Part shown: piece by piece, positions 16,608 through 63,666 of the stretch | Layout: each line of letters opens with the position of its first letter | Position numbering within the stretch: position 1 is the stretch's first letter | NCBI GenBank assembly: GCA_041664265.1 | Contig: JBAYLD010000001.1 | Location: 40,051 to 104,050, forward strand | Direction of reading: 5' to 3' | Length of the DNA: 64,000 bases | Source of the DNA: Minisyncoccota bacterium | Lineage (GTDB): Bacteria; Patescibacteriota; Minisyncoccia; Phycocordibacterales; Phycocordibacteraceae | Notes under the pieces: model-generated | Database searches by the model: none | What the model was told of the DNA's origin: nothing | Seen by the model: only the letters and a program-made list of their open reading frames with translations | Made by a program: the position numbers and the translations under genes

Positions 16608-16617
16608 CGATGACGCT

Positions 16618-16884: not shown

Positions 16885-17081
16885 TGCTACTGCCTAGATC
16901 TCATCATCTGCGAGCCCGAATCTTTCCTCCTCGCCAAGCACGTTGTCTAGCACCAAGACATCGCGGAAGATGTGGTCCTCCGGTTCGGCAGCCTCTTCGT
17001 AATGCTTCTTCTCGTCTCGGTACAGGTAATTAACGATGCGGGTGAGAGCTTTGTGTTCAGATAGGTACATACCTATATCAG

Positions 17082-17591: not shown

Positions 17592-17779
17592 ACTTCGACT
17601 GGGAACATCTTCCGTCTTGCATTCGTTAAGGCTTCGTCCCTTGTCTCTCCGAAGCCAAGCACAGCACCGGTTGTCTTGCTCACCACGCGATACCCAATGA
17701 GCGTGCCGTCTCCCATATCGTCCTCATCTCCCCAAACAGCACCGTGTCCGAAGACCGGTTCAATTGTCATAGTTTGCAT
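17588..17779 (-). CDS. Hypothetical small protein
   Basis: ORF only. 4-nt overlap with the downstream ORF. Confidence 0.25.
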   Translation of the reverse strand: MQTMTIEPVFGHGAVWGDEDDMGDGTLIGYRVVSKTTGAVLGFGETRDEALTNARRKMFPVEV

Positions 17780-18109
17780 TCGTTCTAACTAATAAGCGAA
17801 CACTCGCCGAGTCGTGAGGGGGGCGGGGCTGTGGTTCCACTTCGACTACCTCTACTTTCGTTTGGTGCCATACAGTACTAAACCTGCGCGGAGGGCGGAC
17901 AAAATCTCCATCGTTTTAGAAACGACAAGCCATTCTGAAAACGCAAGCCTGAAAAAAATTCCGCGCCATTTTCTGGATACTTTGCTGTCCATGCGGCATG
18001 CATAATTGCGTTATCCCCAACTAGGCAAACACTATTTCGCGGCTCAGATAAGCCGCGGATTGGGAAACTCTCCCGATTTCAATATCTTGCGGTCCAAACA
18101 GCGTGTACA

Positions 18110-19165: not shown

Positions 19166-19176
19166 AATCAGATTGC

Positions 19177-20229
19177 ATGGAGCTCCTGTACTCGAACATC
19201 AAACCGTGCGAGTCTGATAACTCGTCGTTTAGCGAAGCCTTTGAGGCCGGCGTTGTAAAGTCTGACAGCATAAAGATCGCGACAGGCTACATAACAGAAG
19301 AGTCTCTTTTGGAATTGAAATCGATTCTGTCGTTTTATTTTGACGAGGGAAAAATCAAGAAGTGCAGCCTGGTGCTTGGCATGCACGGCAGAGAGGGTTT
19401 TACTCAGGCGCAATACGAAGCTGCAATAAATCTAGCTATGCTCCTTAAGGAAAGGGACATCGGCGCAGTATACGTTTGCACCGCCTTTAAATTCCACGGC
19501 AAGACCTATGTGTTTTATAAAGCCGATGAGCCTGTCTCTGCTGTGATGGGATCGTCGAACTTGAGCAATATCGTCGACAGCCGCGTATGGGAAGTCGACG
19601 CTCTTTTTACCGAGGCGAAGATCCTCTCGGAACTCGATGCGCTGCACTCCAGTCTGGTTGACAAGGCTTGCCACAACATTCTCGAAATGGAAAAGCCTTC
19701 CACGTTTAACCACGCGAGAGACTTGCTGAAGGACAGGATAGGAGTCACTAAAGCTGACCCCGAGACATACCGCGAAGCTGAAAACTCCGTAACTGATAAG
19801 GTCTTCGACTTGCCGCTGAAACCGGAAGCAAAAAGCAACTTGAACGCTTACTTCGGCAAAGGCAGAATGTCCAAGGCAACCGGGGCAATTCGTCCCCGCC
19901 ATTGGTATGAAGTCGAATTGATTGTTCCGATAGAGATAACATCCTCGCCGTCATATCCGAAAAACGGGTCCGTCTTCCACGTCTTCACCGACGACGGGTG
20001 GTCCTTTAACTGTAAAGTCGAAGGACAGAACGGAAAGAACTTTAGATCGGAGAATGACCTGAGGACTCTGGGCCGATGGATAAAGGGGCGGCTGGAAAAT
20101 TCCGGCTGCCTCAAAGTCGGGCAGCCAGTGACCGAGGAAGTTCTGAAAAACTACGGGCGCCGCACGCTGTCTCTCAAGCAGACAACTAAACCGGATGTGT
20201 GGCTGTTGGATTTCTCAAACAAAGCATGA
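19177..20229 (+). CDS. PLD-family restriction endonuclease (R.CglI/R.NgoAVII-like: N-terminal HKD nuclease plus C-terminal DNA-binding domain)
   Basis: HKD-like motif 'HGKTYVFYKADEPVSAVMGSSNLS' (H-x-K ... GS-x-N). About 350 aa. Immediately after the m5C methyltransferase and translationally coupled to the next gene. Confidence 0.55.
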   Translation: MELLYSNIKPCESDNSSFSEAFEAGVVKSDSIKIATGYITEESLLELKSILSFYFDEGKIKKCSLVLGMHGREGFTQAQYEAAINLAMLLKERDIGAVYVCTAFKFHGKTYVFYKADEPVSAVMGSSNLSNIVDSRVWEVDALFTEAKILSELDALHSSLVDKACHNILEMEKPSTFNHARDLLKDRIGVTKADPETYREAENSVTDKVFDLPLKPEAKSNLNAYFGKGRMSKATGAIRPRHWYEVELIVPIEITSSPSYPKNGSVFHVFTDDGWSFNCKVEGQNGKNFRSENDLRTLGRWIKGRLENSGCLKVGQPVTEEVLKNYGRRTLSLKQTTKPDVWLLDFSNKA

Positions 20230-22109: not shown

Positions 22110-22218
22110 CATTATGACCAAACAGGAGAGGGATTAAAGGAGGAAACGAGTAAGGGCGAATGAGTTGGGCTCGCGGTTTTTATGGCAAATGATAGGCTTT
22201 TCATGAAAACCTCCTTAT

Positions 22219-24501
22219 ATGGCGATAGAGAAAATCATTTCCATAGAGAACATAGGGCGCTTACGGGCATATAAGGCTCGGGGCGACCTCTCTTTCAAGC
22301 GCTATAACCTCGTCTTTGCTGAGAATGGGCGTGGCAAGTCGACCTTGAGCGCAATACTCCGCTCGATGCGAGACGGAGACGACTCCCATATCAAAGCGAG
22401 GTACTCAGTAGGAGCGACTGCCCCCGCGAAAGTTGACGTGCGAATAAATGGTTTGAACGTCAAATACGACGGCAAGTCGTGGGACACAACTGTACCGAAC
22501 CTCGCAATTTTTGACGCTCTATTCACGAGTGAGAATGTACATTCTGGTGACTCAGTCGGAACGAGCCATCGTCGCAACCTATTGCAGATCATGCTCGGTG
22601 CGCAAGGTGTTAACCTTGCAAAGAAGGTTGGTGAACTTGATGAGCAGATTCGGAATGCAAATACGAGTATCACCGAGCGCAAGCGTGCGATCGCTAGGTA
22701 TCTAGAACCTCATGCCGATGTTGACGACTTCGTGCGTCGTCCGGTTGTGGGTGGCATCGCTACACAGATAAAAAATAAGAAGGCTGCACTAGAAGCTGCG
22801 CGCCAAGCAGGTGAGATACAGACACGCACGTCTATCGAAACCATTCCGTTGCCGTCACTGCCTGAGAAGTTCGACGAACTCCTTGATCGGGGCTTGAAGC
22901 AAGTATCTACTGATGCGGAGAAGAAGGTTCGTGAGCAAATAGAACATCACCACATGGGTGAGGATGGTGAGGAGTGGCTTTCACAGGGGCTTGCATACGT
23001 CGTGGACGACAAGTGTCCTTTCTGTGGCTCTGCTATAGCGAGGGGCGACCAAGTGAAGCTATACAAGGAATATTTCAGTGATGCTTACGACACGCACAGG
23101 TCCGCGATTTCCGATGCTCGTAGTGTAGTCATCGGATCTCTCGGCGATACTGCTCGTGCTCGGTTCGTAAGCGGAAAAATAGAACGCAACAAGACTGCCA
23201 TGGAGTTCTGGAAGGCGTATGTGCCAGGTCCTTTCCCCGTATTCAAGGACGAGGGTGTGGTTATAGAGGCACTTGAGGGCGTGTATACGGAAGGTCTGCG
23301 ACTCATAGATAAAAAACTTGGGGCACCGCTCGATACTGTCAATCCCGATAAGCCGTACAAAGATGCGGTAGCGAAGTATGAGACCGTGCGAGCGATGTTC
23401 GATGCATATAACGAGGTGGCAAATAATGCAGACAAAAGCATCGCAGAAGTAAAGCGTACGAGTCGTTCCGCAGACCCACGAACTATACAAGCTGAACTCA
23501 AGGACCTTGAACTGACCGAGCGTCGGCACGCCGATCCAGTGAAGACCTTGTGCGAAGAATACGTTGCCGAAGTTGTGGCAAAGAAGACCCTCGACACACA
23601 GAAGGATACTGCGAAAGATGCTCTTGATGCATATGCCGAAACGGCGCTCAATGGATACCAAGAGGAAATCAATCGGTTGCTATCTCAGTTCGGAACAGGC
23701 TTCACCATTCATAGTACGGTGCGCAGCTATGTTGGTGGTGCACCAACTTCGTCCTACCAACTCATGATTGATAGCTGCCTCATTGATTTGGGTGACGATA
23801 ACACAACAGGCAAGCCCTGCTTCAAGACCTCTATGAGTTCAGGAGACAAGAGTGCACTCGCGCTTGCTTTCTTCCTTGCTCATCTCGACAAAGATGCATC
23901 CAGGTCGCAGAAGATAGTCGTCTTCGACGACCCGTTCACCAGCTTTGACCGTTCGCGTCGTGAGCAGACCGTGCAGTTGATAAAGAAGTTTGGGGAGTCA
24001 TGCGCGCAAGTTGTCGTACTCTCTCATGATCCCTCGTTCTTGAAGCTTCTCTCTGACCGTCTAGACAAGGCAGATACGAGACAGATGCAGATTTCGCGAG
24101 CAGGAGTTAACTCCACTCTCGAAGACTGGGATGCAGACAAGGAAAACCAAGGTCTCTACTTCAAGGATCGCGATGATCTACGAGCCTACATTGATGGCAC
24201 TTCGACCACAGCACTTCAGGATGTGGCGAGAAAGATACGTCCGGTGCTCGAAGGATACATGCGAATTCGCTTCGCAGGAGGATTCCCCGACAACATGTGG
24301 CTAGGCGACATGATCGGGCATGTGCGCACGGCAGGAGCAACGCACCCGCTGTTTCCGGAACTCCAAAATCTATCGGAAATAAACGATTACTCGAAACGCT
24401 ACCACCACGAGACGAACCCAAACTGGAACGCGGAACCCATCTCCGACGGTGAGCTCAAAACGTTCGTGAACAGGACTCTCTTCCTGGTAGGAGGGTACTA
24501 G
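22219..24501 (+). CDS. RloC-like ABC-type ATPase with zinc hook (candidate restriction-linked anticodon nuclease)
   Basis: N-terminal Walker A 'ENGRGKSTL', CxxC hook 'CPFCGS' within predicted coiled coils, ABC signature/D-loop 'SSGDKSALALAF...IVVFDDPFTSFD', about 150-aa C-terminal extension. Located right after the R-M genes. Confidence 0.45.
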   Translation: MAIEKIISIENIGRLRAYKARGDLSFKRYNLVFAENGRGKSTLSAILRSMRDGDDSHIKARYSVGATAPAKVDVRINGLNVKYDGKSWDTTVPNLAIFDALFTSENVHSGDSVGTSHRRNLLQIMLGAQGVNLAKKVGELDEQIRNANTSITERKRAIARYLEPHADVDDFVRRPVVGGIATQIKNKKAALEAARQAGEIQTRTSIETIPLPSLPEKFDELLDRGLKQVSTDAEKKVREQIEHHHMGEDGEEWLSQGLAYVVDDKCPFCGSAIARGDQVKLYKEYFSDAYDTHRSAISDARSVVIGSLGDTARARFVSGKIERNKTAMEFWKAYVPGPFPVFKDEGVVIEALEGVYTEGLRLIDKKLGAPLDTVNPDKPYKDAVAKYETVRAMFDAYNEVANNADKSIAEVKRTSRSADPRTIQAELKDLELTERRHADPVKTLCEEYVAEVVAKKTLDTQKDTAKDALDAYAETALNGYQEEINRLLSQFGTGFTIHSTVRSYVGGAPTSSYQLMIDSCLIDLGDDNTTGKPCFKTSMSSGDKSALALAFFLAHLDKDASRSQKIVVFDDPFTSFDRSRREQTVQLIKKFGESCAQVVVLSHDPSFLKLLSDRLDKADTRQMQISRAGVNSTLEDWDADKENQGLYFKDRDDLRAYIDGTSTTALQDVARKIRPVLEGYMRIRFAGGFPDNMWLGDMIGHVRTAGATHPLFPELQNLSEINDYSKRYHHETNPNWNAEPISDGELKTFVNRTLFLVGGY

Positions 24502-43104: not shown

Positions 43105-43192
43105 GCCGAGATGGTGGAATGGTAGACACGCGACGCTTAAAACGTTGTAAGCTTTAAATCGGCTTGTGTGGGTTCGAGTCCCACTCTCGGCA
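43105..43192 (+). tRNA. tRNA-Leu (anticodon UAA), type II with long variable arm
   Basis: Acceptor GCCGAGA/TCTCGGC, anticodon loop CTTAAAA, about 19-nt variable arm, T-loop TTCGAGT. Confidence 0.8.
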
Positions 43193-43208
43193 CTGAAGTA
43201 GCATATTA

Positions 43209-44381
43209 TTACCCTTTGATTTCATGAGGCAAATCAAGGATATTTTCGGCTGTCTCCATACTTCCCCGCTGTTTCCTTTGAATTTCCAGCCACCGGTTGA
43301 CCACCGGTTGCCCAAAATCCGCCGCAAGAGCAGCTCTCGGATTCAAGAGATCTATCGCTGCCCGGTAGGAGGAAGGTGCCACATGCGCGTATCGCATCGT
43401 GGTCATGATAGAGGTATGCCCCAAGAGTTCTTTTATTGTGTTCAGGGGCACGCCCTTCATGGAGAGGTGCGAGGCGAACGTGTGCCGCAAGGCGTGCCAG
43501 GTTATCCTCCTGATCCCTGCTTTTTTACATGCTCGCGTCAGTGCGGCACCTAAGCGGCATGCGCTGAAAGGATGCTGCCGTTCATCAGCAAAGACAAACC
43601 CTGATTTTCGCTGCCTTCTGAGCAGGATATCGTAGACATCAACATCAAGCGGAATGGGACGCTCTCGGTTGCTCTTTGGAGATGTCAGCGTCTTGGCACG
43701 ATCGACAAGCGAGTGCCGCACCACCAGGTTTTGGTTTTGCCAGTCGATGGATGTCCACTGGAGCCCCCGCAACTCCCCCAGCCGCATGCCGGTCCGAAGG
43801 CCGGTGAGAATTAAGTCGTACAACACGCCATTCAGCATTCCCTTCGCTCCTATAAGCAACAACTTGGCATCCGCTTCGGAGAGATAGTTTGTCTCAGGCG
43901 GCGGGCACACGAGCCGCTTTATCCGCGGAGGCGTTGATTCAAGCTGTAGCCATTCGTAGGCCGTGGTGAGGCAGGTGTTCAACACGGTTAGGCGATTGTT
44001 CACTGTCTTCCTCGCCGCCCCCTTTTGAAGCGCGTGTGCCTTGTACCGTTCAACATCATGCGCTGTGATTTGCCCGAGGGGCATCTTGCCGAAGAATGGC
44101 AGGAGCGATGATCTGAGGATGTATCTCTTGGTTTGGCATTCCGAAGCCTTGTTATTAGAGATTACGTACTCGTCAAACCAACGTTGGGCAAATTGCGCAA
44201 ATGTCTGTCCTGATTCGTTCGGTTTGGCATTTATGTCCTCACCGTGAGCCAATTTTCGCCGCAAGACAACTTCGTATGCAAGCGCTGCCGCTCTTGAATT
44301 CTCGGGACTTCGCTTTCGATAACGGACATAGTTGAACCAGAAGTCGATCCACCAGGAATTCTTTATCTTTCGTACTGCCAT
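43209..44381 (-). CDS. Tyrosine-type site-specific integrase
   Basis: C-terminal catalytic region 'HALRHTFASHLSMKGVPLNTIKELLGHTSIMTTMRYAHV' (R..HxxR...Y). tRNA-adjacent. Confidence 0.85.
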   Translation of the reverse strand: MAVRKIKNSWWIDFWFNYVRYRKRSPENSRAAALAYEVVLRRKLAHGEDINAKPNESGQTFAQFAQRWFDEYVISNNKASECQTKRYILRSSLLPFFGKMPLGQITAHDVERYKAHALQKGAARKTVNNRLTVLNTCLTTAYEWLQLESTPPRIKRLVCPPPETNYLSEADAKLLLIGAKGMLNGVLYDLILTGLRTGMRLGELRGLQWTSIDWQNQNLVVRHSLVDRAKTLTSPKSNRERPIPLDVDVYDILLRRQRKSGFVFADERQHPFSACRLGAALTRACKKAGIRRITWHALRHTFASHLSMKGVPLNTIKELLGHTSIMTTMRYAHVAPSSYRAAIDLLNPRAALAADFGQPVVNRWLEIQRKQRGSMETAENILDLPHEIKG

Positions 44382-44387: not shown

Positions 44388-44651
44388 TCAGCCTATGGAC
44401 TCAACCCGGTGCTTCTGAAGGAACAACAGCAGGCCCCTTCTCGCGAAGCGGACGCTACCGCCCACTTTGTAGAACGGAATGCGCCGCTGTTCTTGTAATC
44501 GTCGTACGCTTGATACGGATATTTTTAGGAATTTCGCAGCTTCAACAACGGTTAGCAATTCCGGCACCGGGTCGAATCCTGTCGGTTTATTTACATCTGT
44601 CAAAGAGCAGTGCGCGGTCGGTGCGACCGGCGGGCTTTGTAATCCTACCAT
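44388..44651 (-). CDS. Excisionase / AlpA-family HTH DNA-binding protein
   Basis: 'LLTVVEAAKFLKISVSSVRRL...IPFYKVGGSVRF' Xis/MerR-like winged HTH. Directly upstream of the integrase. Confidence 0.6.
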   Translation of the reverse strand: MVGLQSPPVAPTAHCSLTDVNKPTGFDPVPELLTVVEAAKFLKISVSSVRRLQEQRRIPFYKVGGSVRFARRGLLLFLQKHRVESIG

Positions 44652-44760
44652 AAGACCAATCTATAGCTTCATGTGGCGGGTGTAAGAAGGGATATTTGGG
44701 CTGAAGGGACAAGGCGCACAACAACGAGTATGTGTATCGCACCTGTCAGGCGGATTTTGC

Positions 44761-44789
44761 TTGACAAGCAAAAAAGGTCTCCCTATACT
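44761..44789 (+). promoter_or_regulatory. Near-consensus sigma70 promoter TTGACA-17-TATACT driving the 5-gene operon
   Basis: -35 at 44761-44766 and -10 at 44784-44789, with the ATG at 44823. Confidence 0.5.
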
Positions 44790-44822
44790 TTGAGCCATAA
44801 AAAGCAATGTCATATTAATAAT

Positions 44823-45416
44823 ATGAAACAAAGCAAGCCTATAGACGAACTCCCGAAAAACGCTAAATTTGTCCTGCCTCCATTTGCTATCGTGATGAAG
44901 GTTGGGCCTCATTCTGGGATGTCGTTAAACGAGATTGTTGAATCGAAGCACAAAGAAGAGGCGCTATACGGAGTACATTATTGGGGGTACTCCGGCAATC
45001 TTTGTCATCCCAGGCGTGTCCTTGATTTTGTTTCGTATGTTTTATCATTCAAGCAAGGGCCACCTAGTTTGCTGCTTATTGAAACAGAAAGTAATTACAG
45101 TACAAGTATTGGTCATATCAACTGCTTCTCAATAGATAGTAAAAACTATGAAAAGTTTGATGGCCCAATTCAACTGCAAGGAGCTCAATATGCATTTGTC
45201 GCACGAAACCTTCACAGGGTGGATCGTGATTTTCAACTCGACCGTTATTCAGTCATAAGTGGCAAGAACGATGGCAAGCCGCTAAGCTTTCATCTCCGGC
45301 AACGAGTCAATAAGGCCTTTGTTAAGAGGACCCCGCGAGCCAAGACATCTCACATATCGCATCTTGCGTACATGGCACAACTTTCTGCGCCGTATGTGTT
45401 TTGGCTAAAGGAATAG
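44823..45416 (+). CDS. Hypothetical protein (first gene of the island operon)
   Basis: ORF with no recognised motifs. Start at MKQSKP (44823) downstream of the consensus promoter. Confidence 0.4.
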   Translation: MKQSKPIDELPKNAKFVLPPFAIVMKVGPHSGMSLNEIVESKHKEEALYGVHYWGYSGNLCHPRRVLDFVSYVLSFKQGPPSLLLIETESNYSTSIGHINCFSIDSKNYEKFDGPIQLQGAQYAFVARNLHRVDRDFQLDRYSVISGKNDGKPLSFHLRQRVNKAFVKRTPRAKTSHISHLAYMAQLSAPYVFWLKE

Positions 45417-45419
45417 GCT

Positions 45420-46262
45420 ATGAATAAGCGAGGATTAATACTAGACCTCGATAATACATTATACAATTGGGTCGATGCTTTTCTTCCTAGTTTCCGAGCT
45501 ATGATTCACAAGTTATCACACGAGCTTAGCATAGAGGAAGAGGAGATACTTGACGATTTCCGTGATGTATATCTAAAGCACGGCACCGTAGAGTACCCCA
45601 GAGCTGTCAATGAGCTAACCCTTTGGGACAGAAACAAGATCTCTGATAAAGAAAGAAAACGAATTTCTGAGATTGTCGACAAAGTCTTCTCCATCAATTA
45701 CCGGAGTCATTTACGTCTTTTTCCCAATGTACGAGAAGTTTTAATGTGGACTCGAGAAGAAGGGATCCCGGTAATAGGTCTTTCTGATGCTCTTGAACGT
45801 TGGGTCTGTTATCGGCTCAGAATCCTTGGAATCGAGAAGTACTTTGCAGGCCTCTATACATGGCAGCATGATCAATGGTTTGATGATCGTCATCCGCATC
45901 ATAGTTCTATAAAAACACGCGTCCAGCTTAATAGCAACGAATTGAAACCAAATTTGGAAGTTGTTAATCGAGTTCTTGCGGATTTCTCATTAAACAGGGA
46001 AACCACATTCATGGTGGGAGATAGCCTATCAAAGGATATCGCTGTAGCACAGACTGCTGGGGTCAATGATGTCTGGGCCCGATATGGCACACGCCCGCAT
46101 GAGCTAAATCTTAATACTCTTCGACGGATTACTCCTTGGTCTGAGTCGGAGAAGGCTAAGGAGAAGAACGCCAAGTTACACATTGTACCTACTTTCATAA
46201 TTGATGACTTTCATGAACTAATCGGCCTGATCGGCACTCGTAGACCAAAGCTTTTTGACTAG
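45420..46262 (+). CDS. HAD-superfamily hydrolase (phosphatase-like)
   Basis: Motif I 'LILDLDNTLY' (DxDxT), motif IV 'MVGDSLSKDI'. Confidence 0.7.
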   Translation: MNKRGLILDLDNTLYNWVDAFLPSFRAMIHKLSHELSIEEEEILDDFRDVYLKHGTVEYPRAVNELTLWDRNKISDKERKRISEIVDKVFSINYRSHLRLFPNVREVLMWTREEGIPVIGLSDALERWVCYRLRILGIEKYFAGLYTWQHDQWFDDRHPHHSSIKTRVQLNSNELKPNLEVVNRVLADFSLNRETTFMVGDSLSKDIAVAQTAGVNDVWARYGTRPHELNLNTLRRITPWSESEKAKEKNAKLHIVPTFIIDDFHELIGLIGTRRPKLFD

Positions 46263-46268
46263 GAAAGA

Positions 46269-47351
46269 TTGATGCACTTCGGAAATGTGGAACTTGATGC
46301 AGCATTTATAGATGCAGAGGATATCGTCGCCAAGCTGCATTTCCTCGACCAAATGGAAAGACGATGGCCATATAATCCTGCAAAGGGCGTCTCTTTGTCC
46401 GAGCGTGTGGCCTGCTCCCTAACCCAACTTCCACCTGAACTACAGCAATTCGCTCTCGCCGTGTTCACTAATGTAATATACCTCCCAGATACACTCCTAA
46501 GAGAGTCATGGAGCTACCTGGCAAGCAAGATCGCTAGAGACCTCGGTATCACAGTATGTAACCTTTTCGAGCAATCTCACCTCTTGGAAGTTGATCCTAG
46601 TGGCCTTATCCCGACTTTTCTCCATGAAAATAAAGTGCATGGCCGCCTCGATACAGATCACTTCTCTCGTCTGCAGTCAATTGATGAATTGGCTAACAAT
46701 CTGCGGCTTATTGGTTTATCTGACAAACAAGAAGAGGGATCTGTACATGGAATTCGTTTGGCTTTTAGTCGACCATTTTGGCTACTTCTCTCAGATAACG
46801 TTCTCAGCGGAACCTCGGTCGCATCCGATCTAAGCCGCTGTGACCGTCTGATTAATGCTTACTCGAAGCTCGGTACTCCAAAGATAATCCCAGTAACGCA
46901 AGTTCTTACGTCCTCAGCCGAATCCTCCGTGCTTTCATCCTGGACCACTACATTCGCTCTCCGCTTTGACAAACAGTTTCAAGTTCTGCCTGGTAATGAA
47001 GATTGTAGCCTATTTAGCAGACGGGATACATTAGACGGAGCCATACGTCTTTGTGACTGGTTTGCTAGCCAAGATTGGTTTTCTAAGGACGATCGCTTAA
47101 CCGCGACCTTACAGAAGAGCGGAGACAACATGGCATATGGTTATAAAAGGGGAGGATGGACTATTGTCACTCCAAACTGCCCCACAAACTCACTTCCAAT
47201 TCTATGGTATGAGCGGGAAGGTGTATATAAGGCCCCCTTTCCAAGGATAATGTCAAGGACATCTCAAATGAAAGGGCACGGAGAGGAGTTGACGGAGGAC
47301 GCCATCTCCTTGGCGCCCCGAGTTCTCAAGAAGTTAGGGGTGGTTGACTAA
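46269..47351 (+). CDS. Hypothetical protein, paralog A (N-terminal 'FxNVELDAAF' motif)
   Basis: ORF only. Shares an N-terminal motif with the next gene. Confidence 0.4.
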   Translation: MMHFGNVELDAAFIDAEDIVAKLHFLDQMERRWPYNPAKGVSLSERVACSLTQLPPELQQFALAVFTNVIYLPDTLLRESWSYLASKIARDLGITVCNLFEQSHLLEVDPSGLIPTFLHENKVHGRLDTDHFSRLQSIDELANNLRLIGLSDKQEEGSVHGIRLAFSRPFWLLLSDNVLSGTSVASDLSRCDRLINAYSKLGTPKIIPVTQVLTSSAESSVLSSWTTTFALRFDKQFQVLPGNEDCSLFSRRDTLDGAIRLCDWFASQDWFSKDDRLTATLQKSGDNMAYGYKRGGWTIVTPNCPTNSLPILWYEREGVYKAPFPRIMSRTSQMKGHGEELTEDAISLAPRVLKKLGVVD

Positions 47352-48409
47352 TGCGCACTTACTTTGATGGAGTCGAACTAGATGCAATATTCCATTCCAT
47401 CCGAGATATGCCAATTGTCCTTGTTGCTACACCAAACTATGAGGAACGTTCGATTGGGTTCTCGCAATGGTTTCTCCATACTTGTCACTCTCAAAAGATT
47501 GATCCAGCAAAAATATTCGCTCAATTCTTGTGGCCTCAAGGAACCTCTTCGCGAGTCGATCTTCTGGAAAAATTAAAAATATCTCAGATTGATAAGCTTT
47601 CTGAACAGCTTCAGTATTGCGCATGGACCCGATCTGTCTTCAGCTACCCAGATGACTTTAATGAAAGACAGGTTATTGATTTAATTCATGAAGCAACTAA
47701 TAAATTTAGCGATGAGCCCTTTAGTCTGATTATAGATATTTCCTGTATGCCTAGGCGAGTAATAGTATCTGTGTGTGATGCTGTTGTCGAGAAAATTAGA
47801 TGTGTTGATAAAGCAGTCCGCCCCCTAGTTTTTTTCGTATACGCGTCGCCGAAAAAGTATGCGGCGATGCGGTACGCGCAGAATATCGGCAATGTTAAAG
47901 GTTATTTCTCTGGCCGTCCCATTCACAATTGCCCTTCCGATCATGTGACCGCTCTGATTTTTGCAAGTTTACAGGGGTACGAAGGCAAAGTGCTCTATGA
48001 TGAGGTCCGAAGCAGGATCAGAAGCTCGGTAACTACATTCGTGGCGGTAAGTGGAGCAGATTACCAAACATCGCTCGCGACAATGAGAGCAAACCAATTC
48101 CTTATGGAGCAGAGAGACATAGACGTCTCGTACTATTTTTCTTTAATGGATGGAATGGAGAAATTAGCAAAACGCATCGAAGCCGAAGGTTTGGTGGGGG
48201 GAGGGAGTGGACTTTCTAGAATGGTGTTAGTCGCTCCCTTCGGCCCAAAGGTTTTTACACTTGGGGCATATTTCATGCTTTCTAACCTACGCTCAGTCAA
48301 TGACTCCATCCAAACTGAAATTGCCCACGTCAGCGGCTTTCAGTATCTTTCATTGTACTCGCTCGGGCTAAGTCATTTTAACGTATTTAAACTATGTGTG
48401 GAGATCTGA
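47351..48409 (+). CDS. Hypothetical protein, paralog B (N-terminal 'FDGVELDAIF' motif)
   Basis: ORF only. Start overlaps the stop of the previous gene. Confidence 0.4.
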   Translation: MRTYFDGVELDAIFHSIRDMPIVLVATPNYEERSIGFSQWFLHTCHSQKIDPAKIFAQFLWPQGTSSRVDLLEKLKISQIDKLSEQLQYCAWTRSVFSYPDDFNERQVIDLIHEATNKFSDEPFSLIIDISCMPRRVIVSVCDAVVEKIRCVDKAVRPLVFFVYASPKKYAAMRYAQNIGNVKGYFSGRPIHNCPSDHVTALIFASLQGYEGKVLYDEVRSRIRSSVTTFVAVSGADYQTSLATMRANQFLMEQRDIDVSYYFSLMDGMEKLAKRIEAEGLVGGGSGLSRMVLVAPFGPKVFTLGAYFMLSNLRSVNDSIQTEIAHVSGFQYLSLYSLGLSHFNVFKLCVEI

Positions 48410-49067
48410 TTCTGTGACGGTAATAAAAATCTGCGATGTGAGAAAGCCGGAGGTAGCATCTTTTTGTGCTTCATGCGGTGCAGAAATGATTGGCCTACAC
48501 TGTATTTGGCACCCTCCGTCCGGAGAGAAATTAGCAACTTTCCAGGATATTTTTAGAGTAGTGCAAGGGCGATGCAAGTGTGTTTTAGTTACCCGTCAAA
48601 AGGATATTCCAACAATCATAGACATGATACAAGGGATGGCATGGGACTATATCCAACTGCATTCGGACTGGGCCCTTAGCAGTATCAATCAGCTTAGGGC
48701 GAGACTGAGTGAAAGCGGCAGATCACTTGGCTTAATCGGTGTTATTGAGATCAGTATGCAAGGCATAACACGAATTAAAAAAATTGCAGAAGCTACAGAT
48801 ATTCTTCTTCTTGATAGCTCGATTCGTGGTGGAAGTGGGACATCCGCGTCATCTGCATTACTTGAACAGGCGGTATCGCATATTCAATCCAAGCCCTTTT
48901 TAATTGCCGGGGGACTTCGAGAAGAGAATGTTTCTCATATAATAGAAAAATATCACCCGTGGGGAGTCGATGTTCAGTCCGGGGTTGAGAAGCCCGGCGG
49001 CAGCAGAGAAAAAGATTTCGACATGATACGGGGGTTCATCTCTACCGTGCGATCCCCAACACGATGA
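48396..49067 (+). CDS. Phosphoribosylanthranilate-isomerase-like (TrpF-fold) TIM-barrel enzyme, standalone with no other trp genes
   Basis: 'IKICDV' (compare IKICGI), 'YIQLHSD' (LHG), 'LLDSSIRGGSGTS', 'LIAGGLREENV...WGVDVQSGVEKPGGSREKD' match the TrpF C-terminal phosphate-binding pattern. Confidence 0.5.
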   Translation: MWRSDSVTVIKICDVRKPEVASFCASCGAEMIGLHCIWHPPSGEKLATFQDIFRVVQGRCKCVLVTRQKDIPTIIDMIQGMAWDYIQLHSDWALSSINQLRARLSESGRSLGLIGVIEISMQGITRIKKIAEATDILLLDSSIRGGSGTSASSALLEQAVSHIQSKPFLIAGGLREENVSHIIEKYHPWGVDVQSGVEKPGGSREKDFDMIRGFISTVRSPTR

Positions 49068-49762
49068 TATGCAAGATCTGTATTTAACTCCTCTTTAACA
49101 GTTGAAAAAGTATGTTTAGCGATATTGGGAACATAGGTAACATAAAAATAGTCTTGGCACTACACTTTGATCTTTGACGTGACACCGTGACACTATGCGC
49201 TATCGCAAGGTAAGCACGACACCGGAAGGACACGAAGGACGCGAGAATTGGACATCTGTACCTCGTGGTTATTCCGATGAAATCGGCCAGTCGTTCCGAT
49301 TCAAATCGGCCACCCTGTCGGAGCGAAGCGACGCCGGCTTTTTAATTCTGTCTCATAATGACTTTCTCAGGTCAAGCCGGAATGTTTTTTTCTCATGGAT
49401 CCTCCCTTCATTTTTATTTTATGGGCGTTGTGAATCAGACGATCGAGGATGGCGTCGGCGATGGTAGAATCACCGATATGCTCATGCCAGTTCTCTATCG
49501 GTAACTGACTGGGAATGATCGTTGAGGCCTTTTAGGGAGGCGTACCGACGCTGGATAATTTAAGCTGAAGCTGAAGCCATTAAGTCACCGGTCAAAATTT
49601 ACCGGAGGGGTTCAATGGCAGCAGAAAGGTTATCCATGCGCACCATCAGAGAGATTTTAAGACTGCACTGGGAGCACCATCTTTCCCAGAAGCAGATAGC
49701 CATAAGGAAGAGGATTTGGAGTGTATCGTAACTTTCGTCGGAGCTCGCTTTTTGTCGGAGGA

Positions 49763-50497
49763 TTAAACTTCCTTTTCCACGCTCGCGATGATATCTCGAA
49801 CAAGACCATCCAAATTCCAGAACGGGTCACCGGTATGGAACCGCGAAAGCTTCTCCACAATTTTTTTGTGTTCGGGCGCACACATTGATGGTAATCCGAA
49901 AACTGACAGCCATGGTTGGGAGTTTTGTACAACATTATTGAAAATTTCCGAGACATGCCATGAAAACATGTCGTAGTCATCTCCGCGATATCGTGGGTAA
50001 TGTTCGAAGAAATATTCGTAAAAAATAAAATGTAATAATTCGTGCGCAATGACAACATTTACGTACCGTTTGTTGCGGTGGCGATATGGAACTTGGAAGG
50101 TTTTATCATCAAGAAATCGCGGATAAATACCCCAGATCGTAGAATATGCGATGTACTTCCCTTTTGGCCAAGGATAATCGCCGAAGATTTGTCGAACGAG
50201 TTCATCAAACTTTGGTTCAATGTCCCGCCATTTGCGCTCATAGTGTGCAAGATTTGAGGCAATACTTTGGGCCAAATCTTCATACTTGTTTTTTACGAAT
50301 CGAATGACATCGGTACGGCAACCGACAAAGCGTACGCCTTGAAACCACTTTTTGCACGTTTGATATTTATCGAGTACGGCCCATTTTAAACTTCTACCGC
50401 TATTATATTCTGCATCTGAGACAAATCTGAAAAAGCTGGCGACATCCTTATTTGCGTCAGCTCTAAATATTATCCGTTTGCGTAATCTATATCCCAC
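49763..50497 (-). CDS. Hypothetical protein with HExxH motif ('VVIAHELLHFIFYEYFFEH'); candidate metallopeptidase downstream of the radical-SAM gene
   Basis: HELLH plus a downstream Glu. Same strand, 57 nt after the rSAM stop. Confidence 0.35.
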   Translation of the reverse strand: MGYRLRKRIIFRADANKDVASFFRFVSDAEYNSGRSLKWAVLDKYQTCKKWFQGVRFVGCRTDVIRFVKNKYEDLAQSIASNLAHYERKWRDIEPKFDELVRQIFGDYPWPKGKYIAYSTIWGIYPRFLDDKTFQVPYRHRNKRYVNVVIAHELLHFIFYEYFFEHYPRYRGDDYDMFSWHVSEIFNNVVQNSQPWLSVFGLPSMCAPEHKKIVEKLSRFHTGDPFWNLDGLVRDIIASVEKEV

Positions 50498-50554
50498 AAA
50501 ATTGAGTGGCAGAGATTATTTAATCTCTGCCACTCAATAATAACATCAAGCGAA

Positions 50555-51940
50555 TTAAGCGGCAATTGACGTGCTATACGTTTGCCAAATTAACCACTCA
50601 AGCGAAAGGTTACTGTGTGGGCAAATTCTCCGATCGATATTCCATCGGTCACCGGTCTTCAGTTCAGCACTGGCCGGGCAGCCACCACCACAAATGCCTA
50701 ACGACTTACAATCCAAGCATCCTTCCATGAAGATTGGAGAGCGTTTCTTCCAATTCTCGAAAAGACCATCTTGAACCGGATCATAAGTCGGGTCAAGAAC
50801 TGATCCTCGGAAGTATGTCCTGGGTTTTACGAAGTCCTGGCAAGCACCGATCCGCCCATCAGGAGCAATGACGATCTGACTTCCATTGACGCCACAATCA
50901 ATAAAAATAGGCTCTCGTTTAACAAACGCCCGAGCCTTTCGCATCATCCGTTCTTCGTAAATGCCACGTTCACGAAAAACTTCGAATGCTTTTATGAGGC
51001 AAATTGCCGCAGCCTGATAATAATCTTCCCCTGTAGACATCTGCGGACTGTAATGTAGAATGTTAAAACTCAGACCATCCCGAATCCCGAGTTCCTCTAC
51101 AAAGTATGTGAGAACCTCATCGAAGTTTTCCACCACTTCCGGCGTGAGGGTTGCAGAAAGGCCAACCATTGCTCCGCATTCGCGCCCTAACTTGTACGCT
51201 CGTTCAGCTTTTTCGAAAGTTCCGCCTTTCCCTCGTTTTGCGATTCGGTGCAAATCATTGAGATGCCGAGGGCCATCCAACGAAATACCAATCGTGACCT
51301 GATGATCTGCAAGAAACTGTGCCATATCGCGTGTCAATAATGCGCCATTGGTCACTATCACCATTTTCGTCGTTTCCGGCAATGAACCAGACGACTTCAA
51401 CTCTTCTGTCCTCGTGACTGCTTTTTGCACTCCGGGCGAATTTAAGAGCGGCTCACCGCCATAGAGATGGATTACGCGTTTCGCCGATTTGCTGTCGCCA
51501 TACCGCGTAGTAAGGCGGGCGAACGTCTCTAGACCGTGAGAAATTACTTCGTCGCTCATCTTTGATGCCTTGAACGATAGTGCCTTTGGCGTGTCCTCAA
51601 AACAGTAGCGACACTGGAAATTGCAGCCATCGGTCAAAAGCAAATAACAGAGATTCATACGAACGTTTTCAACCAGAGACAGACGGGATTGAGCCAGTAG
51701 ATCATCATCCTGCGTCGCTGTACTCACCAACAACTGTTCGGCGATTAATTGATCAATCACATCACCGAATACCGATTTTAGTAGCGTTCGGGAGGGTGTG
51801 CTGTGTACAGCTGAGAGCAAACAATTTCCCTGCTCCTCCGGGAGGAATACCAGATTCAAGGTAAGAGAATTTATCAACGCCATCACCCCTTCACGTACCG
51901 ACGATTTACACCAACGAGATACGCATAATTCTTCTGACAT
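50555..51940 (-). CDS. Radical SAM / SPASM-domain peptide maturase
   Basis: 'CNFQCRYC' CxxxCxxC about 100 aa from the N-terminus, with an RRE-like extension before it. C-terminal SPASM Cys cluster 'CLDCKSLGICGGGCPASAE'. 461 aa. Confidence 0.8.
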   Translation of the reverse strand: MSEELCVSRWCKSSVREGVMALINSLTLNLVFLPEEQGNCLLSAVHSTPSRTLLKSVFGDVIDQLIAEQLLVSTATQDDDLLAQSRLSLVENVRMNLCYLLLTDGCNFQCRYCFEDTPKALSFKASKMSDEVISHGLETFARLTTRYGDSKSAKRVIHLYGGEPLLNSPGVQKAVTRTEELKSSGSLPETTKMVIVTNGALLTRDMAQFLADHQVTIGISLDGPRHLNDLHRIAKRGKGGTFEKAERAYKLGRECGAMVGLSATLTPEVVENFDEVLTYFVEELGIRDGLSFNILHYSPQMSTGEDYYQAAAICLIKAFEVFRERGIYEERMMRKARAFVKREPIFIDCGVNGSQIVIAPDGRIGACQDFVKPRTYFRGSVLDPTYDPVQDGLFENWKKRSPIFMEGCLDCKSLGICGGGCPASAELKTGDRWNIDRRICPHSNLSLEWLIWQTYSTSIAA

Positions 51941-52055
51941 TTCCCCTCTCCAGATAATAGAACGCGGAGGTTTTTGACCCTCCCGCTCAAATTATGAAGC
52001 AACTATGGGAATTACTCGGCTTCTGTTTCTGGGTTCGCATGATCGAGGAGGCGAG

Positions 52056-52193
52056 TTATCTGGGACAATATGAGCAATCGGTGTAGCAGCATTTCATGTC
52101 ATTATTGGTCATCCCAGAGAGTTTTCTAAGTACTTCGGATCGAATCTTCTTCGTAGCCACAACAACTTCGAGACTGTTTTTTTTCTTTTCCAC
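52056..52193 (-). CDS. Unannotated 45-aa precursor peptide with a Cys-rich C-terminal core (SCIFF/ranthipeptide-like RiPP precursor)
   Basis: Hand-translated minus strand: GTG start 7 nt after GGAGGTG. VEKKKNSLEVVVATKKIRSEVLRKLSGMTNNDMKCCYTDCSYCPR*. Sits 115 nt upstream of the rSAM gene on the same strand. Confidence 0.45.
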   Translation of the reverse strand: MEKKKNSLEVVVATKKIRSEVLRKLSGMTNNDMKCCYTDCSYCPR

Positions 52194-52473
52194 AAATTTT
52201 CACCTCCTTTCTTACTTAGATTTGCTGGATCTTATTATAAAACACCATGATATTCCGAATACCTACTAAATACCACCGAACATATTATGGCACAGCGACC
52301 TAAAGAACACAAGAATATGTACATTAATACCCATATTGACCCTTTCTAAATTTTCAAAAACCTACCTTGGACAGATGTGATACCAATATTATTGTCACGA
52401 ACCCAATGAAAGCCCCCGACCTTAAAAGTCAGGGGCTGTGGATAACCGGCCACGCCGGTAATGTTTAATATCC

Positions 52474-52689
52474 TCAATCGTGGCAATTCGACCCGCCATC
52501 GGCATAGATAATCATAGTCTTGCCGTACCCTCCCTTGTTGAGGGAATATTTATGCCCGCAATCGAGGACAACGGTTTTGCCTTTCAGGAAATCCACCACT
52601 TCCCGGGTCGTCACCTGCTTCTTTCCTTTCACCACTGGACAGAAGTCCAGCGGCAAGTGTTCCAGTTGCATCGCTGGCCTCCTTTCCAA
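52474..52689 (-). CDS. Hypothetical small protein (degenerate zinc-ribbon-like)
   Basis: ORF followed (minus strand) by a hairpin plus T-rich stretch at about 52410-52440. Confidence 0.25.
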   Translation of the reverse strand: MERRPAMQLEHLPLDFCPVVKGKKQVTTREVVDFLKGKTVVLDCGHKYSLNKGGYGKTMIIYADGGSNCHD

Positions 52690-52704
52690 AATGACTTGGT
52701 GGGA

Positions 52705-53448
52705 TTAATTGGCTATCTTGAGGATGGTGTTATGAAGCTGGATAAGCTTTTCCATAATGGATATGGGTGGGCTGGATTTCAGGCATTCAGTGCCTGCATT
52801 GTAGAAGCTCCATATGTTGCGGGGCCGGAATTCCTCAAAGCTCGGCCTCAACCATTCAGCTTTCAAGACTGGCAGTTGCCGGGGACTGATGATGTTGTTT
52901 CCGAACAATACCCCCATCAACTGGAAGGCTTCCAGGTTGTCCAGTGGCAGGGCCTTGAATGCCGCCGCGTCCGCCACGATCTGCTCGTAATTCTTCTGGC
53001 TTCTATAGATAGTGGCGATGGCGGTTTCTTCCAGTTCCATCCAGACATTCTTGGTGTGCTTTCTCATTACGACAATTTCGCCGCTTAAGGCCAGGTTGTC
53101 GCAGACGAAGACCGTAGCGCCAATCGCCATCCCGATGGCCATGGAGCGGTCGTAGGAATTACGGAACGCGATTGACAGGCCCAAATCTGCCTTGTCGTTC
53201 TTGAACTTCAAGACCGCAAAGAGCTGGTTTCCCTGGCGGGCAATGCCGTAATTCTCTCCGATCAGGACGTAATCCCGCAGAATGTCCTGGCTGATGGTCA
53301 GGAATTTGTCGGCCAGGTGATAATGGCTGACCGGCACATAGCTTTCCGTGGGCTCAGGCAGGGGGATCAGGTCCAGGCGATCCCTGGTGACCAATTCCCC
53401 GCCCCGGTGCATCAATATCTCGTTCATTTTTTTCCTCCTTTCTCTCAT
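52705..53448 (-). CDS. DUF932-like phage/plasmid-associated protein
   Basis: 'LGLSIAFRNSYDRSMAIGMAIGATVFVCDNLALSGE' resembles the conserved core of DUF932 proteins found with RadC on mobile elements. Confidence 0.35.
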   Translation of the reverse strand: MRERRKKMNEILMHRGGELVTRDRLDLIPLPEPTESYVPVSHYHLADKFLTISQDILRDYVLIGENYGIARQGNQLFAVLKFKNDKADLGLSIAFRNSYDRSMAIGMAIGATVFVCDNLALSGEIVVMRKHTKNVWMELEETAIATIYRSQKNYEQIVADAAAFKALPLDNLEAFQLMGVLFGNNIISPRQLPVLKAEWLRPSFEEFRPRNIWSFYNAGTECLKSSPPISIMEKLIQLHNTILKIAN

Positions 53449-62142: not shown

Positions 62143-63666
62143 GTGCATCCAGAACGTAAAACCGTACTCCAAATCGGCTCCGCCACAGTTGAAGAGGAAT
62201 TCTTCCATAAACTTCAAAAACATTTTATTGAACATGGACTTCGTCTGACCCCTTCCGCCCTGACTCAGATCCCGAGTGAGGCAAATTCGGCGTGCGGCAT
62301 TCTGATTGCCGAAATGTCCGGCAAGATTGGTTTTATACGATCGTGCTTCGAGACGTTGAGCGACACCGCAGAGGATTCAGGGCTAGCGTTTGCCGTTCTC
62401 GTTCCCACCTCGGATGGGCTTGGCGTGGTGGAGCGGCTTATTTGCGAGTTACGCATGGAATCGCGGGCCACCGTTAGCCTCACCGAGGATGCAGGGAACG
62501 CTGCCGAATATCTCGCCCGCTGGACTCCGGGACCGCCCTTAGGTAAACCGACGGTTCTCCCGCCAGGTTTCGGCCTGCCGCCTCGAACGGAGCTGCTACT
62601 TCAAAGGTCATTCCATGACTGCGATCGAATTTACCTGCAGCCACTCAGTGGCGGGCGAGACGCGTCGGGCGTTTTTTGCGTCCATGCCTGGCTTAGGAAA
62701 TCGATCGTTGGGCCGAGACCCTTGCCATTCTTCATCAAGTTCTCTACGCCGGACAAAATAAAAGGGGAGCGATCTAACTATGAGGACTATGCCGACTTTT
62801 ATATCCCCTTTTATCTCAGGCCCAACATCGTTCCTATGCGATGTGCTCAGGTCAAGGATTTGGCCTCTCTTGTGGGCAATTTTGTGGAGGGCGCGATACC
62901 GCTAAGGGCCGCACTCCGGGCGTGCCAGAGCCCTGGAATTATCTTCTCACTTTTTGAGATCAGCTTGAGGGGATTTAGATCCCAGCCAGCCAGCGGGCCA
63001 ACTGCGAGTTGGGATGAGCCATTGGAAGCCTTCGTGCGCGAACGTGTCCGGGCGGCAGAGGTTGAGGCGGATACTGTTGATCTCGCCCGGTCCTCCTTCG
63101 GTTTGAAGTTCACGCCGATAGAAATCGAAAATCGCCTATGTGCTGCCATTGGACCAGTCAAACGAAACTTCAGCCCATACCATGGCGATCTGCATACTGG
63201 AAACATCATGGTTCGTGGTAGGGATGCCATCCTAATTGATTTCAGCGCCGTTAAGAAGGGGCCACTCACCGCCGATCCCGCCACCTTGGAAGCAAGCCTT
63301 GTTTTCGGAACCGACGCTGAGGACGATAGCGCTGAGTTTGAGGAATGGAAGAAAGCTGTGGATGTGATTTACGACGGTGTTCTAATCCACGAACCACCCT
63401 CTCTCGGAACCGGTCCAGGTCCCTTCGCTTGGCTTTACATGGCGCTCCGGGAAATTCGGCACGTCCTACTCGGATGCGATTGCAAACAGGAGGAAGCTGC
63501 GGAGGTGCTCGCAGCGTACCTGCTTCGTTTTGGGCGTCTGCCCGCCGACAAATTTGAGGATAAGACGCTTTCGGAACTGGCACGTTCAAGACGTGCGTAC
63601 GCCTTGGTGGTAGCCGAGAGAATCGTGGACTCGCTGGTTGCAAAGAAAGGAACAGCAGCGACGTGA
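62143..63666 (+). CDS. Protein with C-terminal protein-kinase-like/APH-fold domain; last complete gene of the ubiquitin-like operon
   Basis: Catalytic-loop-like 'HGDLHTGNIM' followed by 'ILIDFSAV' (DFG-like). Confidence 0.4.
   Translation: MHPERKTVLQIGSATVEEEFFHKLQKHFIEHGLRLTPSALTQIPSEANSACGILIAEMSGKIGFIRSCFETLSDTAEDSGLAFAVLVPTSDGLGVVERLICELRMESRATVSLTEDAGNAAEYLARWTPGPPLGKPTVLPPGFGLPPRTELLLQRSFHDCDRIYLQPLSGGRDASGVFCVHAWLRKSIVGPRPLPFFIKFSTPDKIKGERSNYEDYADFYIPFYLRPNIVPMRCAQVKDLASLVGNFVEGAIPLRAALRACQSPGIIFSLFEISLRGFRSQPASGPTASWDEPLEAFVRERVRAAEVEADTVDLARSSFGLKFTPIEIENRLCAAIGPVKRNFSPYHGDLHTGNIMVRGRDAILIDFSAVKKGPLTADPATLEASLVFGTDAEDDSAEFEEWKKAVDVIYDGVLIHEPPSLGTGPGPFAWLYMALREIRHVLLGCDCKQEEAAEVLAAYLLRFGRLPADKFEDKTLSELARSRRAYALVVAERIVDSLVAKKGTAAT

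Follow-up and report, generated by a model that had tools for sequence, protein, structure and literature searches.

It was asked whether the minus-strand genes lying between positions 49763 and 52193 of the 64,000-nt stretch of DNA analysed here (the window) form a RiPP operon and, if so, to which known system they are related and what chemistry they may perform. In order along the strand, the locus contains genes for a 45-aa precursor peptide, for a 461-aa RRE/radical-SAM/SPASM enzyme and for a 244-aa HExxH protein. The same trio is repeated in the related metagenome loci examined, with many homologs labelled Patescibacteria, and a search of curated family models and of the literature revealed none matching it. 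The locus is probably a genuine precursor/maturase system, i.e. a RiPP operon (probability about 0.8), and this operon is a new variant among radical-SAM/SPASM systems, borne on a tRNA-Leu integrase island. The preliminary description of this DNA, whose coordinates and sequences all proved correct, had proposed a RiPP-type cluster with these three components, belonging neither to SCIFF nor to a known sactipeptide, and the analysis supports this proposal.

The precursor gene (52056..52193, minus strand) is translated as VEKKKNSLEVVVATKKIRSEVLRKLSGMTNNDMKCCYTDCSYCPR. Its start codon is a GTG, located 7 nt downstream of a strong Shine-Dalgarno sequence, AGGAGGTG (52201..52208, minus strand). A possible -10 hexamer, TATAAT, may be recognized 5' of the gene (52234..52239, minus strand); it is a weak candidate, read from the sequence only, and is absent from the list of full promoters obtained by a consensus promoter scan. 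As previously indicated, 51941-52473 is not covered by any ORF reaching 60 aa, and the same gap, about 530 nt long, is overlapped by four other ORFs of 33-59 aa. A 45-aa ORF is, by itself, within chance expectation for a gap of 530 nt, and the gene was judged to be real because it is conserved, not because of its size. A homologous small ORF, Cys-rich at its C-terminus, is located directly 5' of the radical-SAM gene in all related loci with enough readable upstream DNA (31/31), and in each of these loci the encoded peptide ends in C-C-[YFWQN]-T-x-C-[TSNA]-[RY]-C.

Twenty-six distinct peptide sequences were collected, that of the window included. A leader of the form ..VLKxxDRAKVLGxI.. is common to the homologs; in the window peptide, the leader corresponds approximately to residues 1-34, contains ..VVVATKKIRSEVLRKLSG.. 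and is basic, with a strand-like segment and a R-x-x-V-L-(G/R)-K motif. A conserved cleavage motif at the leader/core junction is not evident in the alignment of the 26 peptides. The window core, K-C35-C36-Y37-T38-D-C40-S-Y-C43-P-R, reduces to the short motif C-C-Y-T-x-C-x-x-C. Within the alignment Thr38 is invariant and position 37 is mostly aromatic, with Q and N also tolerated, while D39, the sole Asp of the window core, is not conserved, the other sequences having S, Q, A, V, T or G.

Most of the precursor genes have escaped gene calling. A word-index search with the 45-aa peptide gave no match and an exhaustive phmmer search was needed; among 1.84 billion representative proteins, it detected only four family members that had been called as proteins (hits P0241-P0244, best E 7e-9). 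The same unannotated precursor was present in every locus open to inspection. When seven precursor peptides were compared to NCBIfam and Pfam, no family was recovered at E <= 10.

The second gene (50555..51940, minus strand), preceded by its own Shine-Dalgarno sequence, GGAGAGGGG, codes for the maturase, which was characterized by ORF translation, family models, alignment, AlphaFold2 modelling and Foldseek. A search with the enzyme yielded 1417 matches, the best 120 of which all share 46% identity or more with it, their named sources being mostly Patescibacteria. The radical-SAM CX3CX2C motif, at C106/C110/C113, is invariant in 28 homologs, and Pfam Radical_SAM matches the protein with E 2e-17. 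The SPASM domain (50621..50896, minus strand) contains seven cysteines, C349, C367, C408, C411, C417, C421 and C440, all invariant in the 28-sequence alignment; their spacing, C349-x12-G362-x4-C367, C408-x2-C411-x5-C417-x3-C421 and C440, is that of the SPASM motif CX9-15GX4C ... CX2CX5CX3C ... C.

At the N-terminus (approximately residues 1-90; 51671..51940, minus strand), the AlphaFold2 model (pLDDT 91.5) predicts a beta3-alpha3 domain of the type of a RiPP recognition element, with strands 11-16, 19-24 and 30-34 followed by helices 35-45, 51-58 and 61-67. The family profile aligns over the RRE of TigE (residues 3-85; PMC10878394) and over part of that of CteB; the Pfam PqqD model did not match the maturase N-terminus. 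Altogether, the features of RRE-dependent radical-SAM/SPASM RiPP maturases are present: CX3CX2C, SPASM, RRE and an adjacent conserved precursor.

When the enzyme was compared to curated families, the best 25 of 74 NCBIfam matches were mostly peptide maturases. The FibroRumin maturase model, TIGR04136, is the highest-scoring curated model for the window enzyme, as it is for each of the relatives tested; the domain order, RRE, rSAM and SPASM, is the same, and the alignment is full-length, residues 9-455 matching model positions 3-454 of 458. The window enzyme, with 256.3 bits, and five relatives, with 212-280 bits, nevertheless fail to reach the 400 bits required of an equivalog, and no curated precursor model matches the peptides. 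Scores are far below the cutoffs for the SCIFF maturase (TIGR03974, 79.5 bits against 425) and for PapB (NF047865, 124.2 bits against 340). A PADLOC pVip match of 56 bits was attributed to generic radical-SAM similarity, and identification as a viperin was rejected. Literature searched for FibroRumin, for the core motifs and for ranthipeptide/SPASM systems in Patescibacteria, CPR or Parcubacteria contained nothing specific.

The SCIFF/ranthipeptide architecture evoked in the preliminary description holds as an analogy. Like ScfA/ScfB, CteA/CteB (PDB 5WGG) and PapB, the window has a short Cys-rich precursor directly 5' of a RRE/rSAM/SPASM maturase, in a minimal cluster without transporter. Membership is not sustained, as the maturase falls under the TIGR03974 and PapB cutoffs and the peptide has no curated precursor match. 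The window enzyme is only 22-28% identical to those of ScfB loci, and the window core has four Cys in nine residues, at the extreme C-terminus, whereas SCIFF has six Cys in GGCGxCQxSCQSACKTSCTVxNQxCE. The repeated C-x3-D/E core motifs typical of PapB are likewise absent, D39 being unconserved. Moreover, the conserved HExxH gene of the window family is absent from the SCIFF loci seen. In a genome scan based on a generic radical-SAM pattern, most of the loci recovered were canonical SCIFF loci, 22-28% identical, and one was a Bdellovibrionales relative.

The closest solved structure is that of TigE, one of the TigE/TvgB cyclopropylglycine synthases (PDB 8VPO), which ranks first in a PDB profile search with the maturase family (E 6e-34, over the full length, RRE included), with CteB next. 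By Foldseek, TigE (E 4e-22, TM 0.70) is again closest and CteB (TM 0.71) comes second, both matching over the full length. The GYW motif of cyclopropyl synthases contributes the Tyr which ligates Aux I (PMC10878394); G338-Y-W of TigE aligns to an unconserved G-I-Y-E-E-R of the family consensus, and assignment of the window enzyme to the cyclopropyl synthases was rejected. The Val/Ile repeat on which TigE/TvgB substrates undergo cyclopropanation is absent from the window core.

These comparisons bear on the chemistry which may be proposed for the operon. The recognition element of the maturase would bind the precursor leader and the enzyme would abstract a hydrogen from a core residue, most probably Thr38, which is invariant, or its neighbour at position 37. 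A cysteine sulfur would then be joined to that carbon, closing one or two thioether rings within the peptide, like those of ranthipeptides and sactipeptides; a Cys-to-Thr thioether like that of thermocellin would fit the invariant Thr of the core. With seven cysteines in the SPASM domain, one iron of an auxiliary cluster may stay available for binding a cysteine of the substrate, as happens in CteB. By analogy with these systems, there is about an even chance that the maturase installs thioethers on the core; the type and position of the cross-link, and the role of cysteines as reactive partners, are all suggested by the same analogy.

In the same RiPP operon the enzyme might, with a lower probability, perform a different reaction on the conserved Tyr/Phe-Thr pair, such as cross-linking through a C-C or C-O bond, epimerisation or some other change, the cysteines of the mature peptide forming disulfides or a CCxxxCxxC metal site. 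Such a reaction would be in keeping with the nearest solved structure, by both sequence and fold, being an enzyme which makes C-C bonds, with a mostly aromatic position 37 next to an invariant Thr38, and with the many chemistries spanned by SPASM enzymes, the NCBIfam list including cyclophane, dynobactin and streptide-like types. The lack of conservation of the diagnostic GYW of TigE argues against it, as do the Q and N at position 37, which are difficult to reconcile with a universal aromatic cross-link; in addition, four invariant Cys in a 9-residue core are a hallmark of thioether RiPPs, and the thioether formers PapB, QhpD and SCIFF maturases are among the best-scoring models after TIGR04136. 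A more radical alternative, in which the small ORF is spurious and the radical-SAM enzyme serves in protein maturation or cofactor synthesis, in the manner of an anaerobic sulfatase maturase, is extremely improbable. Sulfatase maturases are indeed among the detectable relatives (TM 0.61-0.63), but their model, TIGR03942, gives 91.4 bits against a cutoff of 349, and they have no RRE, which the window enzyme has; this identification was rejected. The reading frame of the peptide is preserved in 31/31 loci although their DNA has diverged, the peptide being found beside every ortholog which could be examined, and because of this conservation the reading without a RiPP is effectively refuted. The outcome which the preliminary description had named as contrary to its proposal, an enzyme of a non-peptide-modifying clade whose orthologs lack an adjacent conserved peptide, was thus not observed.

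Hairpins are found at both gene junctions in all 19 loci folded, i.e. the window and 18 others. In the gap between the precursor and the radical-SAM gene, a GC-rich stem-loop, GAGCGGGAGGGTCAAAAACCTCCGCGTTC (51960..51988, minus strand), is a terminator-like hit, with a spacer fold z-score of -2.8, and a comparable hairpin is found in 18/18 other loci; it resembles an attenuator or a partial terminator. At the second junction a perfect 17-bp stem-loop (50501..50538, minus strand; fold -30.8 kcal/mol, z -5.9) is followed by a U-run that reaches the GTG start codon of the HExxH gene, which has no Shine-Dalgarno sequence, and the same arrangement is seen in 18/18 other loci. The hairpins may serve to grade expression, in the decreasing order precursor, maturase and HExxH protein.

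The third gene (49763..50497, minus strand) codes for a 244-aa protein with HELLH at residues 152-156 (nt 50030-50044). An alignment of 40 sequences shows no variation at H152, E153, H156, E184 or H210. In the structural model (pLDDT 93.9), the HExxH motif lies on a predicted active-site helix (145-166) and E184, the putative third-ligand Glu, on the following one (173-191), a feature of gluzincin type; the predicted fold appears zincin-like. Similarities to peptidase families, including gluzincins such as the M1 catalytic domain, thermolysin and the minigluzincin selecase MJ1213, are all below family thresholds, and the N-terminal region, of approximately 110 residues, has no counterpart in gluzincins. 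Foldseek comparison of the model against the PDB gave only noise, and a scan of viral contigs for the HExxH family revealed no relatives. The gene is located 3' of the radical-SAM gene in 7/7 loci found through the latter. In the reverse direction, among 67 loci found through the HExxH gene and with room upstream, 44 have the radical-SAM gene directly 5' of it, while the remaining 23 lack both radical-SAM gene and precursor and keep the catalytic HExxH...SEI motif intact. Stand-alone and cluster-linked copies are intermixed, with up to 84% identity, and in some loci relics of the radical-SAM gene lie beside intact HExxH genes.

The leader peptidase role suggested earlier for this protein is plausible and not established: the zincin-like fold speaks for it, and the homologs without radical-SAM gene, together with the existence of HExxH oxygenases, speak against it. 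A Zn peptidase removing the leader is the leading guess, held at slightly less than even odds, and is only that because about one third of the HExxH homologs stand alone, which would be unexpected for a dedicated leader peptidase. Some HExxH proteins encoded beside radical-SAM enzymes act as Fe/alpha-ketoglutarate oxygenases (PMC12636437), and the window protein could be a non-haem enzyme of this kind, hydroxylating or oxidatively trimming the cross-linked peptide, like ChlH, PflC or BpmH. This is unlikely. No sequence relationship to such RiPP oxygenases (ChlH, BpmH, PflC/PosC; IPR026337) was detectable, and membership in the IPR026337 beta-hydroxylases was rejected, neither the family model nor ChlH giving a match; furthermore, the window protein is free-standing, while those oxygenases are fused, and it has an invariant downstream Glu on the next helix, like gluzincin peptidases. 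Slightly less probable still is a role in self-protection or resistance, in which the protein would degrade or inactivate the mature peptide and stand-alone copies would be orphan immunity genes. The intact motif of the 23 unlinked homologs and their similarity to cluster-linked copies would agree with this role, as would the radical-SAM relics, which suggest that HExxH genes are kept after the biosynthetic genes decay. On the other hand, the model, an all-soluble helical fold, shows no evident signal peptide or membrane segment, split clusters or assembly breaks could mimic orphans, and the peptide has no known bioactivity. A transporter is not part of the conserved module, an absence which counts against the proposed operon.

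The genomic context is that of an integrated element. A tRNA-Leu(TAA) gene (43105..43193, plus strand) is the probable integration site of the island, and a tyrosine integrase gene (43209..44381, minus strand; Pfam Phage_integrase, E 8e-30) lies 16 nt from its end. The AT-rich block described earlier was confirmed, GC being 0.45 over 44400-53000 against 0.53 on both flanks. Horizontal acquisition, also proposed at that time, is supported by the low GC, by the tyrosine integrase adjoining tRNA-Leu and by genes of conjugation type. A search of the 64-kb window for another copy of the 3' end of tRNA-Leu (attR) revealed none.

Biosynthetic gene clusters are usually reported as scarce or absent in Patescibacteria, and one survey states that there were none in its Patescibacteria MAGs (PMC11613949). 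The uncalled precursor genes may explain why annotation-based mining misses the system described here. It is possible, if rather doubtful, that the CC[Y/F]TxC[T/S]RC peptides, with their dedicated radical-SAM/SPASM enzyme and zincin-like partner, constitute an undescribed RiPP class, with an unseen cross-link and a HExxH function other than simple leader removal. The cross-link could in that case be, for example, a compact bicyclic thioether on Thr or on an aromatic residue. With about nine residues and four Cys, the core lends itself readily to heterologous expression and to structure determination of a cross-link whose topology may be new. The HExxH family is also relevant to the current question of when zincin-fold HExxH proteins in RiPP clusters act as proteases and when as oxygenases. 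If such a class exists, it would join the small number of secondary-metabolite systems that are widespread in Patescibacteria (CPR), the window would show its cluster moving horizontally on an integrative island, and the peptide could mediate interactions of these episymbionts with hosts or competitors.

Re-reading of the window bore out the sequence features given in the preliminary description. On the minus strand, a 45-aa precursor ORF (52056-52193), which reads VEKKKNSLEVVVATKKIRSEVLRKLSGMTNNDMKCCYTDCSYCPR, begins with a GTG codon placed 7 nt past the Shine-Dalgarno sequence AGGAGGTG (52201-52208). It is followed, after a spacer of 115 nt, by a 461-aa radical-SAM (rSAM)/SPASM enzyme ORF with its own ribosome-binding site (50555-51940) and, after a further 57 nt, by a 244-aa HExxH protein ORF containing HELLH (49763-50497). 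The gap at 51941-52473 is, as claimed, devoid of ORFs of at least 60 aa. Since four further ORFs of 33-59 aa overlap this gap, the 45-aa ORF taken alone is not significant.

The 45-aa peptide is real. Related loci were fetched through homologs of the enzyme (6 loci) and of the HExxH protein (80 more), and peptides were counted only in the 31 loci holding the enzyme N-terminus and at least 150 nt upstream of it. In 31/31 a small same-strand ORF ends directly before the enzyme gene, with the C-terminus C-C-[Y/F/W/Q/N]-T-x-C-[T/S/N/A]-[R/Y]-C; peptide homologs beside rSAM genes, for which a search had been recommended, are thus present elsewhere. The 26 distinct peptides, including that of the window, align across the leader, ..V-L-K-x-x-D-R-A-K-V-L-G-x-I.., and across the Cys core; the last Cys directly precedes the stop codon in many of them, and short C-terminal tails are found in the nearest relatives of the window peptide. 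An exhaustive phmmer search of the latter against 1.84 billion representative proteins yielded four called homologs, the best being P0241, ...GKLNGMTNADMKCCYTSCTYCPRGSS... (62% identity, E 7e-9). At E <= 10 no NCBIfam model matched any of the seven peptides tested; Pfam gave no credible match for that of the window.

For the enzyme 1417 homologs were detectable, the best 120 of which each share 46% identity or more with it; those of the 120 with a named source carry mostly Patescibacteria lineage labels. The CX3CX2C cysteines (C106/C110/C113) are invariant, as are seven C-terminal ones fitting the SPASM motif (C349, C367, C408, C411, C417, C421, C440). In the AlphaFold2 model (pLDDT 91.5) three strands and three helices form the N-terminus, which thereby has RiPP recognition element (RRE) topology. 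The alignment of the family profile with TigE (8VPO; E 6e-34) is full-length and takes in the TigE RRE, residues 3-85 (PMC10878394); CteB, anaerobic sulfatase maturase (anSME) and ChlB follow among the profile matches. Foldseek gave TM 0.70 for TigE, 0.71 for CteB and about 0.62 for anSME, the last without the N-terminal domain. The best curated model, TIGR04136 (FibroRumin maturase), matches full-length with 256 bits, under its 400-bit cutoff, and five relatives score likewise (212-280 bits). The comparison with maturase family models, also suggested beforehand, placed the enzyme far below the cutoffs for PapB (124/340 bits), QhpD-type (95/453), anSME (91/349) and SCIFF (79.5/425). On these motif, model, profile, Foldseek and curated-model results, the enzyme is an RRE/rSAM/SPASM-class peptide maturase and a sister group to the FibroRumin family, belonging to no curated family. 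Identity with cyclopropyl synthases was considered and rejected, the GYW motif not being conserved in the enzyme family.

The SCIFF/ranthipeptide architecture originally proposed is an analogy: in its mode of working the trio resembles SCIFF/ranthipeptide or sactipeptide systems, yet it fails their membership tests. The nearest system is the uncharacterised FibroRumin family, whose membership likewise does not include the enzyme. Neither the peptide motif nor the trio was found described in NCBIfam release 20, in Pfam or among the 8 million papers searched.

Some related loci differ in composition. The contig of locus L004 holds, besides the first, a second, divergent cluster (5723-8181, minus), ordered as HExxH (236 aa), a 54-aa peptide, ..MAGRCGGSGRCPSPKS.., and rSAM (455 aa, about 30% identical); therefore the enzyme pair occurs also with a different Cys-containing core. 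In L007, from an uncultured Bdellovibrionales (2743-4389), a peptide with the C-terminus ..VAVAGSKCNCGCSCWRD is encoded ahead of a 31% identical rSAM/SPASM enzyme (best model TIGR04136, 256 bits); a homolog of the HExxH protein was not detected there. The Azambacteria locus L088 carries an additional, short rSAM/SPASM gene (5030-6124; about 350-364 aa) downstream of its HExxH gene, where L122, L123, L127 and L130 have a weak rSAM-like match of about 20% identity.

The HExxH protein has 331 homologs and no Pfam assignment. H152, E153, H156, E184 and H210 are invariant; helix 145-166 of the predicted structure (pLDDT 93.9) carries the HExxH and the helix after it E184, which in the model is the gluzincin arrangement. 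The point is relevant since, for HExxH proteins linked to rSAM enzymes of RiPP systems, a function as Fe/alpha-ketoglutarate beta-hydroxylases or oxidative cleavers has been shown (PMC12636437, citing Morishita et al. 2024); sequence comparison with that family revealed no link. The HExxH gene lies downstream of the enzyme gene in 7/7 loci reached via the enzyme. Among the 67 loci with room reached via the HExxH gene, the enzyme gene lies upstream in only 44, six of which retain only enzyme relics (L102, L120, L129, L145, L153, L164). The other 23 homologs are orphans with an intact catalytic motif (among them L092-L094, L108, L111, L113, L137, L138, L140, L147, L148, L150, L156, L157 and L163), phylogenetically intermingled with cluster-linked copies, to which they are up to 84% identical; no precursor-like ORF was present near the orphans examined. 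Leader peptidase is the simplest putative role for the protein; an oxygenase or an immunity role is less likely.

Both gene junctions contain hairpins. A GC-rich stem-loop (51960-51988) separates the precursor and enzyme genes, as in 18/18 other loci folded; a hairpin 3' of the precursor gene is a familiar means of making more precursor than enzyme, as in lantibiotic and subtilosin operons. At the junction of the enzyme and HExxH genes, the hairpin (50501-50538, minus; 17 bp, U-run, z -5.9) is terminator-like, stronger than the former and also present in 18/18 other loci. In 19/19 loci (the window, L004, L006, L087-L090 and L096 included) the HExxH start codon lies 0-12 nt past the U-run, without a Shine-Dalgarno sequence.

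The cluster lies within a low-GC block (0.45 versus 0.53), in agreement with the AT-rich block reported initially. A tRNA-Leu (43105-43193) and a tyrosine integrase (43209-44381) mark its start, and DUF932, RadC, PD-(D/E)xK and TraG/VirD4-like genes are also carried; no repeat of the tRNA-Leu end was found within the window. The source MAG bears the NCBI label Candidatus Paceibacterota, with which the housekeeping genes of the window are not in conflict. The same island contains a five-gene block (44673-49067, plus), possibly a defence or conflict system based on nucleotides. Its products are an unknown protein of 247 aa, a HAD hydrolase (PADLOC 'Hydrolase' PDLC03008, E 8e-30), a PRTase-CE protein (weak PADLOC PRTase_III-A match), a 352-aa protein (weak CARF6 match) and a PRAI-like protein. 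Short ORFs directly downstream of the HExxH gene (49195-49731, plus) include ..MRTIREILRLHWEHHLSQKQIA.., presumably resembling the N-terminal HTH of IS21-type transposases; they may be an IS remnant, and had no NCBIfam match at the strict threshold. Elsewhere, the gene of a large serine recombinase (10285-11958, minus) and the 3' portion of a tRNA-Gln (10274-10345) overlap, and DNA of slightly lower GC comes next; together with an AAA_13/AbiEii-like ATPase (22219-24501), the region 10274-24501 may be a second integrated element. At the window end, another gene of conflict-system type (62143-63666, plus) encodes TCAD9 (ternary-complex-associated domain 9) and an APH-type kinase domain in one protein.

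Gene order, conservation, domain content and invariant residues are established for the trio. In the mechanism proposed, the leader would be bound by the RRE of the enzyme, and a 5'-deoxyadenosyl radical would take a hydrogen from the core, where position 37 and the invariant Thr38 are the candidate sites. A cysteine thiolate, possibly bound meanwhile to an auxiliary cluster, perhaps unsaturated given the seven-Cys count, would then close a thioether ring; one or two rings could form inside nine residues. The leader would afterwards be cut off by the HExxH protein. Because no transporter is conserved with the trio, the peptide may act in the cell or exit by a general route.
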